A stretch of 4,665 nucleotides of DNA, taken from IMG/VR virus record IMGVR_UViG_2711768073_000007, one strand, 5' to 3'. Positions within the stretch are counted from its first letter, which is position 1. Each line of letters opens with the position of its first letter. The notes under the pieces are model-generated. The model saw only the letters and a list, made by a program, of their open reading frames with translations. It ran no database searches and had not been told where the DNA came from. The position numbers were made by a program, and so were the translations under genes. Origin of the DNA: a virus (lineage: Duplodnaviria > Heunggongvirae > Uroviricota > Caudoviricetes). Positions 147 to 4,341 of this stretch are shown here, piece after piece.

Positions 147-932
147 ATGAGTACAGCACTCGCAACGCTGGCAGGGAAGCTGGCTGAACGTGTCGGCATG
201 GATTCTGTCGACCCACAGGAACTGATCACCACTCTTCGCCAGACGGCATTTAAAGGTGATGCCAGCGATGCGCAGTTCATCGCATTGTTGATCGTCGCCA
301 ACCAGTACGGCCTTAATCCGTGGACGAAAGAAATTTACGCCTTCCCTGATAAGCAGAACGGCATCGTTCCGGTGGTGGGCGTTGATGGCTGGTCCCGCAT
401 CATCAATGAAAACCAGCAGTTTGATGGCATGGACTTTGAGCAGGACAATGAATCCTGTACATGCCGGATTTACCGCAAGGACCGTAATCATCCGATCTGC
501 GTTACCGAATGGATGGATGAATGCCGCCGCGAACCATTCAAAACTCGCGAAGGCAGGGAAATCACGGGGCCGTGGCAGTCGCATCCCAAACGGATGTTAC
601 GGCATAAAGCCATGATTCAGTGTGCCCGTCTGGCCTTCGGATTTGCTGGTATCTATGACAAGGATGAAGCCGAGCGCATTGTCGAAAATACTGCATACAC
701 TGCAGAACGTCAGCCAGAACGCGACATCACTCCGGTTAACGATGAAACCATGCAGGAGATTAACACTCTGCTGATAGCCCTGGATAAAACATGGGATGAC
801 GACTTATTGCCGCTCTGTTCCCAGATATTTCGCCGCGACATTCGCGCATCGTCAGAACTGACACAGGCCGAAGCAGTGAAAGCTCTTGGATTCCTGAAAC
901 AGAAAGCCACTGAGCAGAAGGTGGCAGCATGA
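147..932 (+). CDS. bet: Red-beta single-strand annealing protein (Bet), 261 aa
   Basis: The 261-aa product ([38 protein letters not shown]...) is recognisable as lambda Bet and has the same length. The 5-nt gam-bet gap and the ATGA overlap with exo (929-932) are also as in lambda. Confidence 0.96.
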
Positions 933-1609: not shown

Positions 1610-1788
1610 AACATCCTCACGATAATATCCGCGTAGGCACGATCACTTTCGTCTACTCCGTTACGAAGCGAGGCTGGGTATTTCCCGGCCTTTCTGTTAT
1701 CCGAAATCCCCTGAAAGCACAGCGGCTGGCTGAGGAGATAAATAATAAACGGGGAGCTGTATGCACAAAGCATCTCCCGTTGAGTTAA
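1606..1788 (+). CDS. Small conserved lambdoid protein of unknown function, orf60a-like, 60 aa (alternative start ATG 1600)
   Basis: The ATG at 1606 overlaps the exo TGA stop (ATGA at 1606-1609), giving a 60-aa product [24 protein letters not shown].... The length and 4-nt overlap match the lambda orf60a annotation as I recall it; the six-frame track starts it 6 nt earlier at 1600. Confidence 0.7.
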
Positions 1789-1952
1789 GAACGAGTATCG
1801 AGATGGCACATAGCCTCGCTCAAATTGGAGTCAGGTTTGTGCCAATACCAGTAGAAACAGACGAAGAATTTCATACGTTAGCCGCATCCCTTTCACAAAA
1901 GCTGGAAATGATGGTGGCGAAAGCAGAAGCAGATGAGAGAGACCAGGTATGA
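1761..1952 (+). CDS. Small conserved lambdoid protein of unknown function, orf63-like, 63 aa
   Basis: A 63-aa ORF ([37 protein letters not shown]...) overlaps the previous ORF by 28 nt, the same length and overlap as lambda orf63 relative to orf60a. The product is acidic and predicted soluble. Confidence 0.7.
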   Translation: MHKASPVELRTSIEMAHSLAQIGVRFVPIPVETDEEFHTLAASLSQKLEMMVAKAEADERDQV

Positions 1953-2244
1953 CAACCACGGAATGCATTTTTCTGGCAGCGGGCTTCATATTCTGTGTGC
2001 TTATGCTTGCCGACATGGGACTTGTTCAATGACACCTCAGCAAGAAAACGCCCTTCGCAGCATTGCCCGTCAGGCTAATTCTGAAATCAAAAAAGCCAGA
2101 CAGCAGTTTCCGGATAAAAACGTCGATGACATTTGCCGTAGCGTACTGAAGAAGCACCGCGAAACGGTAACGCTGATGGGATTCACACCGACTCATTTAA
2201 GCCTGGCGATCGGCATGTTAAACGGCGTCTTTAAGGAACGGTGA
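1933..2244 (+). CDS. Hypothetical protein in the lambda orf61 position, 103 aa as drawn; the real product may instead be the 71-aa protein from ATG 2029
   Basis: The ATG at 1933 overlaps orf63 by 20 nt, as lambda orf61 does by the recalled coordinates, but here the frame stays open for 103 codons. An internal ATG at 2029 (MTPQQENALRSIARQ...) is translationally coupled to an upstream small ORF, so the start is uncertain. Confidence 0.5.
   Translation: MRETRYDNHGMHFSGSGLHILCAYACRHGTCSMTPQQENALRSIARQANSEIKKARQQFPDKNVDDICRSVLKKHRETVTLMGFTPTHLSLAIGMLNGVFKER
1949..2032 (+). CDS. Candidate 27-aa hydrophobic micropeptide (MTTTECIFLAAGFIFCVLMLADMGLVQ), alternative frame within the orf61-position ORF
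   Basis: Its ATG overlaps the orf63 stop (ATGA at 1949-1952) and its TGA stop overlaps the ATG at 2029 (ATGA at 2029-2032). The product has one continuous hydrophobic stretch of about 20 residues, consistent with a single transmembrane helix. There is no independent SD, so coupling would be required. Confidence 0.25.
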   Translation: MTTTECIFLAAGFIFCVLMLADMGLVQ

Positions 2245-2608: not shown

Positions 2609-2887
2609 ATGTTCAGAATCATTTTTCCTAACACCTGGTACGTCGACCACCACGGCACTCCCTGCAAAATCCTGCGTTCTACCCACAACAAAGTTCACTA
2701 CATCCGAAAAGGCAGAACATGTATCGCCAGCATGTTCCGCTTTAATCATGACTTTGAACCTGTGAATAAAGCTGATGCAGATCGGATAGCAGAAGAGATC
2801 GAAACGGCAGAACACATTAAGAAGTTACGTGACATGCGTTCAAAAAGCAGAGGTAACCATGGAATCATACAGCCTCACACTCGATGA
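2609..2887 (+). CDS. Hypothetical protein, 92 aa, function unknown
   Basis: Good SD (GAGGTG, 2598-2603) 5 nt before ATG 2609, co-oriented with the operon. The 3' end overlaps the xis start by 29 nt. I recognise no motif; basic N-terminal half, acidic central segment. Confidence 0.55.
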   Translation: MFRIIFPNTWYVDHHGTPCKILRSTHNKVHYIRKGRTCIASMFRFNHDFEPVNKADADRIAEEIETAEHIKKLRDMRSKSRGNHGIIQPHTR

Positions 2888-3230
2888 GGCCTGTCAGTTT
2901 CTTAAGATATCCAGACCAACCGCCACCAACTGGATACGAACAGGCCGCCTACAGGCAACACGTAAAGATCCAACCAAGCCAAAATCTCCTTACCTCACAA
3001 CACGGCAAGCCTGCATTGCGGCGCTTCAGTCTCCGCTGCATACTGTCCAGGTGAGCGCGGGTGATGGCATAACAGAGGAAAGAAAATGTCACTCTTCCGC
3101 AGAAATGAAATATGGTATGCCTCGTATTCGCTCCCGGGCGGGAAACGAATTAAGGAATCTCTTGGCACAAAGGACAAGCGGCAAGCTCAGGAGTTGCACG
3201 ACAAGCGAAAAGCAGAACTCTGGCGAGTAG
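2859..3230 (+). CDS. xis: Excisionase-like DNA-binding protein (Xis / recombination directionality factor candidate), 123 aa from ATG 2859 (track gives GTG 2829)
   Basis: SD AGAGG before ATG 2859. The N-terminal about 55 aa ([32 protein letters not shown]...) look like a phage excisionase/AlpA-type helix-turn-helix, and the gene sits immediately upstream of the integrase. The frame runs 145 nt into int in a different frame, so the true C-terminus is uncertain. Confidence 0.6.
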
Positions 3231-4264: not shown

Positions 4265-4341
4265 TGGCGCGCCCTGCAGGATTCGAACCTGCGGCCCACG
4301 ACTTAGAAGGTCGTTGCTCTATCCAACTGAGCTAAGGGCGC
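4265..4341 (-). tRNA. argU: tRNA-Arg (anticodon UCU), 77 nt with encoded CCA
   Basis: The reverse complement of 4265-4341 folds as a cloverleaf: acceptor GCGCCCT/AGGGCGC, D-arm GCTC-AGTTGGATA-GAGC, anticodon arm ACGAC-CTTCTAA-GTCGT (anticodon TCT), T-arm GCAGG-TTCGAAT-CCTGC, discriminator G and CCA. It matches E. coli argU as I recall it. Confidence 0.95.

Follow-up and report, generated by a model that had tools for sequence, protein, structure and literature searches.

A candidate gene for a 27-residue hydrophobic peptide at the orf61 position of the lambdoid phage early operon

The segment between orf63 and the orf61-position gene

The stretch of viral DNA analysed here (IMG/VR record IMGVR_UViG_2711768073_000007, Caudoviricetes; its full length of 4,665 nucleotides (nt) is called the window below) comes from a lambdoid prophage that has integrated at tRNA-Arg(UCU) (4265–4341, minus strand) and covers the early region of its left arm. 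Its genes follow one another in the order bet (to 932), exo (929–1609), orf60a/DUF1317 (1606–1788), orf63/DUF1382 (1761–1952), a gene of 71 amino acids (aa) at the orf61 position (2029–2244), orf73 TraR/DksA (2343–2561), DUF4222, an excisionase-like gene and intD. Our subject is the segment between orf63 and the 71-aa gene. The open reading frame (ORF) of the latter shares its frame with an upstream ATG at 1933, which gives a 103-aa ORF (1933–2244). The original prediction, made from the bare sequence, was that this region can be read differently, as a 27-codon frame that starts at ATG 1949 on the orf63 stop and ends in the ATGA that opens the 71-aa ORF. Both junctions lie where they were placed, and the ATGA overlaps of bet with exo and of exo with orf60a, which had been joined with them into one chain, are real as well. 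The features concerned are the following:

1761..1952, plus strand: orf63 (DUF1382), the gene 5' of the peptide ORF, with its stop TGA at 1950–1952
1949..2032, plus strand: peptide ORF of 27 codons, MTTTECIFLAAGFIFCVLMLADMGLVQ, candidate gene for a small hydrophobic single-helix peptide
1949..1952, plus strand: ATGA overlap of the orf63 stop (TGA 1950–1952) with the peptide start (ATG 1949–1951)
2029..2032, plus strand: ATGA overlap of the peptide stop (TGA 2030–2032) with the start of the 71-aa gene (ATG 2029–2031)
2029..2244, plus strand: 71-aa gene at the orf61 position (WP_000188870.1, PHROG 303), a coding sequence called by the Prokaryotic Genome Annotation Pipeline (PGAP)
1933..2028, plus strand: in-frame 5' extension that gives the 103-aa ORF (93 aa from ATG 1963), judged to be non-coding in that frame
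929..932, plus strand: bet/exo ATGA junction, in agreement with the PGAP gene ends in a near-identical genome
1606..1609, plus strand: exo/orf60a ATGA junction, in agreement with the PGAP gene ends in a near-identical genome
2091..2096, plus strand: run of six A (A6) within the 71-aa gene, seven (A7) in laboratory lambda

In a RefSeq genome 99.9% identical to the window, PGAP starts the orf61-position gene at 2029 (WP_000188870.1, 71 aa) and leaves 1953–2028 empty. Phage records disagree on this start: some place it at 1963 (93 aa), that of lambda at the equivalent of 1933, and many have no annotation there. Our comparison of related loci makes it fairly probable that the early operon of lambdoid phages under pL (exo-xis) contains a genuine small gene at 1949–2032, which encodes a 27-residue membrane-type peptide.

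Conservation of the 27-codon frame

The comparison covers 331 loci, of which 108 were collected by protein- or BLAST-based retrieval and 223 by a DNA pattern in which ATGAC, a spacing of 75 nt and ATGACACCTCAGCA were the only fixed elements, so that two-thirds of the loci were chosen with the junctions and their spacing fixed. The 84-nt segment occurs in 31 haplotypes. The peptide ORF is intact throughout except for a Q27-to-stop variant in five loci. A search for indels between the two overlaps disclosed a single real length variant among IMG/VR contigs, longer by 2 nt, and its contig has a further insertion in orf63. ATG 1933 is missing from about 27% of the loci.

The main counts rest on alleles seen at least four times, which leaves 13 alleles in 1953–2028. 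Read in the frame of ATG 1949, these fall on codon positions 1/2/3 as 3/1/9 and represent 9 synonymous and 3 nonsynonymous changes plus one stop at the last codon (Q27); read in the frame of ATG 1933, the same alleles distribute as 9/3/1, with 2 synonymous, 9 nonsynonymous and 2 stop-creating changes. Given an expected synonymous fraction of 0.27, the excess in the 27-aa frame has a P-value of 0.0017 for alleles seen at least four times, 0.004 for those seen at least twice and 0.037 for all alleles, and the 108 loci that were not pattern-selected yield P-values between 0.002 and 0.011. These values are only moderate because all copies are close relatives with few polymorphic alleles. Among all six frames, that of the 27-aa peptide scores best. 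The alignment across relatives proposed with the original prediction has thus turned out in its favour, with a synonymous excess in the 27-aa frame and none in the 1933 frame. As controls, the codon-position counts are 0/0/13 for the C-terminal part of the 71-aa gene, 6/6/22 for orf73, 7/6/16 for orf60a and 7/7/8 for orf63. By this measure the peptide frame looks at least as coding-like as its accepted neighbours, with a signal that equals that of orf60a and exceeds that of orf63, whose protein has a solved structure from nuclear magnetic resonance.

The same tendency is seen among 175 phage genomes that carry the segment (including lambda, DE3, phage 21, HK630, 933W, VT2-Sakai and Phi24B): 138 of them have the identical peptide, whereas a DNA identity of 99% or more over the 76 nt is reached by no more than 24. 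In the type that has diverged furthest (1H12, L106), five of the seven nucleotide changes are silent. Both this comparison and the 9:3 ratio of common alleles indicate that the amino acid sequence is maintained by selection.

The predicted product opens with MTTTE and continues with about 20 residues of hydrophobic core; it has a grand average of hydropathy (GRAVY) of 1.62 and a top 19-residue Kyte-Doolittle window of 2.33, beginning at residue 7. On this scale the peptide has the bilayer-spanning hydrophobic length of single-pass membrane proteins of up to 50 aa, and it is the most hydrophobic of the 28 ATG-initiated ORFs of 20–45 aa found in six frames of the whole window. The original prediction had allowed for a chance frame, which now appears unlikely: in composition-preserving shuffles of the 76-nt spacer, an open frame alone arises in 34% of cases, but an open frame with the observed hydropathy in only 0.15%.

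E. coli has small membrane proteins with one helix, among them KdpF (29 aa), AcrZ and MgtS, which usually modulate a larger membrane protein. The peptide resembles them in being shorter than 50 aa and in its one predicted hydrophobic helix; it differs from them in that it shares no sequence similarity with them and is phage-encoded within a coupled operon. It has no Lys, Arg or His, but KdpF likewise lacks basic residues, so that their absence does not exclude the peptide from this class. Type I toxins (Ibs, ShoB, TisB, DinQ, Hok) are also short, very hydrophobic peptides. A likeness to these lies in the coding of a short hydrophobic peptide on a mobile element, and toxicity through membrane damage would fit a pro-lytic role. 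Unlike them, the candidate gene sits in mid-operon with overlapping neighbours, neither an antisense RNA gene nor a promoter of its own was detected, and the peptide matched no NCBIfam toxin model, nor did it have a significant match in Pfam or PHROGs.

Of 5,426 complete E. coli genomes, 3,144 (58%) contain the 92-nt segment, in a total of 4,260 copies. These always lie beside the 71-aa gene, and their upstream neighbour is orf63 or a gene for a DNA adenine methyltransferase; in none of the 60 records listed does the segment bear a feature of its own. The exact peptide is called on 981 contigs of a large protein collection; UniRef (A0A0A2SGE8) and a few draft genomes list it as "hypothetical protein". 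It is therefore machine-predicted already, but never curated or studied: a full-text search for its sequence returned no paper, and the supplements of the paper on ribosome profiling of small genes in enterohaemorrhagic E. coli Sakai do not include it. The ORF is probably an uncharacterised gene for a small hydrophobic protein in the phage early operon, absent from RefSeq annotation.

Start sites, mosaic variants and competing explanations

The peptide ORF has at both ends the four-base stop/start overlap characteristic of ATGA-coupled genes, kept in all 331 loci, although 223 of these were selected by a pattern that requires it. At the 1949 overlap, five different sequence contexts on the upstream side all retain the A in front of TGA. 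In one of them, a mosaic type of 39 loci (about 12%; the type of BL21, e.g. BL21-AI, NZ_CP047231, and L028, L039, L049, L074, L082 and L088 at 867–1424), orf63 is replaced by the unrelated gene of a 185-aa Dam-like N6-adenine methyltransferase (NPPY motif), and ATGA 1949 is the exact point at which homology to the window sets in. The stop of the methyltransferase gene overlaps the peptide ATG again, and GGGAGG lies 4 nt upstream (−10.3 kcal/mol). By contrast, ATG 1933 is absent from these 39 Dam-type loci and is ACG in about 50 others (the haplotype of phages encoding Shiga toxin (Stx)), which together make up the loss noted above.

In the window, the pairing with the anti-Shine-Dalgarno sequence amounts to −5.6 kcal/mol for the peptide start at 1949, −4.9 for ATG 1933 and −3.8 for ATG 1963. 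The start at 2029, with −3.9 kcal/mol, is the second-weakest of 13 scored starts and lies below every annotated gene start (−4.9 to −7.7); such a very weak Shine-Dalgarno sequence fits termination-reinitiation at the ATGA. A second mosaic type (P0046 type; L104 at 741–1716; about 100 complete E. coli genomes) has a 250-aa gene in place of both orf63 and the peptide ORF. Here GAGGCCAAT-ATG precedes a 71-aa protein with a different N-terminus (MTIEHNN...), homology to the window begins near 2047, and there is no peptide ORF. The start of this variant at the equivalent of 2029 fixes 2029 as the true start of the 71-aa gene, which has its own Shine-Dalgarno sequence (GAGG) precisely where the peptide ORF is missing. 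Since the 71-aa gene occurs without the peptide ORF, the peptide is not an obligate partner of the downstream protein, and the suggestion of such a partnership in the original prediction is weakened.

Models of the long form agree with a start at 2029. An AlphaFold model of the 103-aa ORF has pLDDT (predicted local distance difference test) values below 50 at residues 1–23, and its confident helices (35–58, 64–81 and 86–96) all lie in the 71-aa part; the fold in a published model likewise begins at residue 24 of the 93-aa form (PMC8614690). A Foldseek search with the 103-aa model returned no PDB match with an E-value below 1 and bore out neither the name "ZapA" nor the homeodomain proposed in the literature. 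Many 71-aa copies are called "cell division protein ZapA" in RefSeq, and the underlying Pfam match is sub-threshold (E = 0.014, 16.1 bits against a cutoff of 23.8). Our search for wider relatives of the 71-aa protein found a family confined to lambdoid phages of the E. coli group; seemingly distant protein matches proved to be frameshifted copies, and matches in other genera look like lambda DNA contamination.

Taken together, the substitution pattern, the mosaics, the conservation of start codons, the strengths of the Shine-Dalgarno sequences and PGAP's choice of 2029 all fit a division of 1933–2244 into 27 and 71 codons better than one 103-aa ORF, and this re-reading is probably right; the structural part of the original prediction is thus supported, and its interpretation as a whole partly so. 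As we picture it, ribosomes that end orf63 translation at TGA 1950–1952 would restart at the overlapping ATG 1949, aided by a modest GAGAG Shine-Dalgarno sequence; the 27-residue product would form a single helix in the inner membrane; and ribosomes terminating at TGA 2030–2032 would restart at ATG 2029 to make the 71-aa protein. The peptide ORF would then act both through its own product and as a relay feeding the 71-aa gene, and the conservation of its amino acids suggests that the peptide has a function beyond the relaying of ribosomes.

Several observations weigh against a functional peptide. PGAP gives the peptide ORF no feature in the 60 RefSeq records sampled, and a review of the region, in its passages on lambda ribosome profiling, names only 7-aa and 31-aa new ORFs. 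The peptide has a net charge of −2 (E5, D22) and lacks the flanking basic residues expected from the positive-inside rule; a tblastn search of phages matched only this locus and so disclosed no homologues outside this phage group, and searches of PHROGs, NCBIfam and Pfam returned nothing significantly similar. With regard to the substitution pattern, the copies are all 92–100% identical and offer 13–24 polymorphic alleles, rare nonsynonymous variants exist (12 of 24 alleles), the thresholds for allele counts were picked after the data had been seen, and an antisense frame that shares the wobble positions shows 7 synonymous and 6 nonsynonymous changes.

Among the alternatives, the segment may be a relay only, whose 27 codons are translated just to bring ribosomes to the weak start at 2029 and whose peptide is a degraded by-product. 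The ATGA overlap at each end, the place of the 2029 start among the two weakest pairings scored and the separate Shine-Dalgarno sequence of the 71-aa gene where the peptide ORF is absent would all be expected from such a relay, as would the finding that, in the 331 loci, the peptide ORF never occurs without the 71-aa gene downstream, and a product without basic residues and homologues fits it too. For this purpose, however, an open frame with properly placed ends would suffice, yet the amino acids are conserved (9:3 among common alleles; 138 of 175 phages identical despite changes in the DNA), and the extreme hydrophobicity, reached by so few shuffles, would go unexplained; we therefore regard a mere relay as rather improbable. 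Still less probable is a non-coding spacer, in which 1953–2028 would be untranslated and both the open hydrophobic frame and the wobble pattern would be due to chance. PGAP and many phage records indeed annotate nothing here, an open frame as such is common in shuffles, polymorphisms are few and the nucleotide diversity of the segment (0.024) is near that of its flanks. A spacer would nevertheless not be expected to have three-base periodicity and a synonymous excess in one frame only, or to have its ATGA recreated together with a strong Shine-Dalgarno sequence behind an unrelated upstream gene; no RNA structure or promoter accounts for its conservation, and it would leave the 71-aa gene with a very weak Shine-Dalgarno sequence 76 nt from the nearest terminating ribosome.

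That the long ORF is real (103 aa, or 93 aa from ATG 1963) and the 27-aa frame an overlapping accident is very unlikely, even though this is the form used by phage GenBank records, PHROG 303 and the literature on Orf61, and even though no stop interrupts its frame from 1933 on and ATG 1963 is kept. It conflicts with the loss of ATG 1933 from so many loci, with the preponderance of nonsynonymous and stop-creating changes (the third codon position accounts for just 1 change out of 13), with the pairing energies of both upstream starts, with the L104 variant, which swaps everything upstream of about 2047 and starts at the equivalent of 2029, with the low model confidence at residues 1–23 and with the insoluble aggregates obtained in published expression attempts (PMC6213356); the conserved start upstream of 2029 combined with a coding-type extension that a long-form Orf61 (61, 93 or 103 aa) would show was not found. 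Hardly credible, finally, is an antisense gene, namely a minus-strand ORF at 1831–2016 (61 aa), as the source of the periodicity. Its third codon positions coincide with those of the 27-aa frame, and it is the frame with the 7:6 ratio of common alleles given above; however, it scores below the sense frame, its ATG (the complement of 2014–2016) is lost by a C-to-T change at 2014 in 11 loci, two-thirds of it lie over orf63 with wobble positions on orf63 second positions, the synonymous sites 2020 and 2028 fall outside it, and no promoter-like site was found on either strand.

Other kinds of element were considered for the spacer and rejected. Folding of 1930–2050 gave a z-score of +1.0, with 176 of 200 shuffles folding at least as well, and a consensus scan of 1700–2400, which weak promoters can escape, found no sigma-70-like site on either strand; these results argue against an RNA element or promoter. 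A leader peptide or attenuator was dismissed for want of unusual RNA structure and because the nearest terminator (2265–2283) lies past the 71-aa gene. A programmed frameshift fusion (orf63-peptide or peptide-71 aa) was discarded as well: the peptide frame has a stop at 1934–1936, and inspection found no in-frame X XXY YYZ heptamer.

Directly 3' of the 71-aa gene lies another tiny ORF of the same operon, 31 codons at 2241–2336 from GTG 2241 (29 from ATG 2247), MNMKSKIIRELQAPFLLFAFILKRINQQFRD, which overlaps the stop of the 71-aa gene (GTGA here, ATGA in lambda). It matches "orf2313" of lambda, an ORF described in a ribosome-profiling study (Liu et al. 2013, cited in PMC8614690). Like the peptide ORF, "orf2313" overlaps the preceding stop and has a hydrophobic middle; it differs in sequence, contains a hairpin and lacks coding-type substitutions (1/4/5 by codon position; 5 synonymous, 5 nonsynonymous, hence no coding signal), while a translation signal is reported, in the account given there, for "orf2313" and not for the 27-aa ORF. 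The hairpin resembles a rho-independent terminator (2265–2290; AGGGAGC-TAC-AGGCTCCTT, then a T-run) and lies inside the 31-aa ORF, between the 71-aa gene and orf73; Bloch et al. 2014 had predicted an identical element, "t2" (2265–2283). Further downstream, another ATGA (2884–2887) is found at the DUF4222 stop, and in genome L001, nearly identical to the window, PGAP marks the excisionase/AlpA-like helix-turn-helix gene (2859–3090, between DUF4222 and intD) as an incomplete pseudogene.

Lambda orf61 and the published mutants

Lambda orf61 (NP_040613), the 93-aa "Orf61" of Stx phages (vb_24B_7c, 933W L0070) and PHROG 303 all represent the locus discussed here, and their conserved core is the 71-aa gene. 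The lambda and Stx-phage annotations contain the peptide ORF within their N-terminal part: they read 1933/1963–2028 in the frame of the 71-aa gene, whereas by our analysis this segment would code in the +1 frame, for the 27-aa peptide. The comparative evidence supports the view that three forms are artefacts of annotation, produced by reading through a putative peptide gene in the wrong frame: the 103-aa ORF, "Orf61" of Stx phages with 93 aa and "orf61" of lambda with 61 aa.

Lambda has an identical peptide ORF (NC_001416, 30925–31008, minus strand). Laboratory lambda has A7 (NC_001416, about 30860–30866; L004) where the window and most relatives have A6, so that its 71-aa gene is frameshifted and the annotated 61-aa orf61 is a chimera, in which a leader in the wrong frame is followed by residues 1–21 of the 71-aa protein and then by a shifted tail. 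Unlike the 71-aa gene, the 61-aa product thus ends early through the extra A. In the literature lambda Orf61 is said to "appear truncated", and the upstream peptide ORF goes unmentioned. The A-run is a recurrent frameshift site in prophages (P0057, P0061, P0068 and P0104; L112 is "frameshifted" according to PGAP). Low-coverage contigs (L007–L020, several of about 48.4–48.5 kb, others shorter) match laboratory lambda including the A7 frameshift; they stem from assemblies of Shewanella, Pseudomonas, Bradyrhizobium, Kitasatospora, Oceanobacillus and others, and look like lambda contamination.

The published mutants acquire another aspect on this map. In the lambda "orf61" frameshift mutant of Bloch et al. 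2014, a C was deleted in CTTCATATTCTGTGTG*TTATGC (PMC4195576, Table 1); the deleted base corresponds to window position 2000, in codon 18 of the peptide and upstream of the start of the 71-aa gene. Phage development of this mutant was delayed after induction (PMC4195576). The orf61 deletions of Dydecka et al. 2018 take out the peptide ORF too (PMC6213356), and deletion led to more lysogens and survivors; expression of the annotated long form gave the insoluble aggregates mentioned above. These data demonstrate that the segment matters, but they do not distinguish between the peptide, the coupling and the annotated protein. The peptide may have a role, if any, in the pro-lytic phenotypes given to orf61. 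A bolder version, which we offer tentatively and hold to be rather doubtful, is that the peptide, and not the annotated Orf61, is the active product behind these phenotypes, as a membrane-acting early factor of lambda and Shiga-toxin phages that biases the choice between lysis and lysogeny; what suggests it is that laboratory lambda has a broken 71-aa gene and an intact peptide ORF, and that the published frameshift falls into the peptide frame.

Lambda is the reference temperate phage, and its exo-xis region is under study as a modulator of the induction of Shiga-toxin prophages. If our interpretation is correct, the lambda map would gain a gene, and the place of orf61 on it would have to be given to a 71-aa gene, frameshifted in the laboratory phage. 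For the published orf61 reagents (deletions, frameshift mutant, yeast two-hybrid clones and structural models), it would mean that they used an N-terminus in the wrong frame and removed or disrupted the peptide ORF, and their phenotypes would need reassignment. RefSeq annotation would also lack a conserved hydrophobic micro-protein that about 58% of complete E. coli genomes encode, BL21(DE3) among them, and the peptide ORF would provide a clean test case for relay-type translational coupling via a micro-ORF. The main value of the finding would lie in a corrected annotation of lambda orf61 and in a second look at the published mutants.

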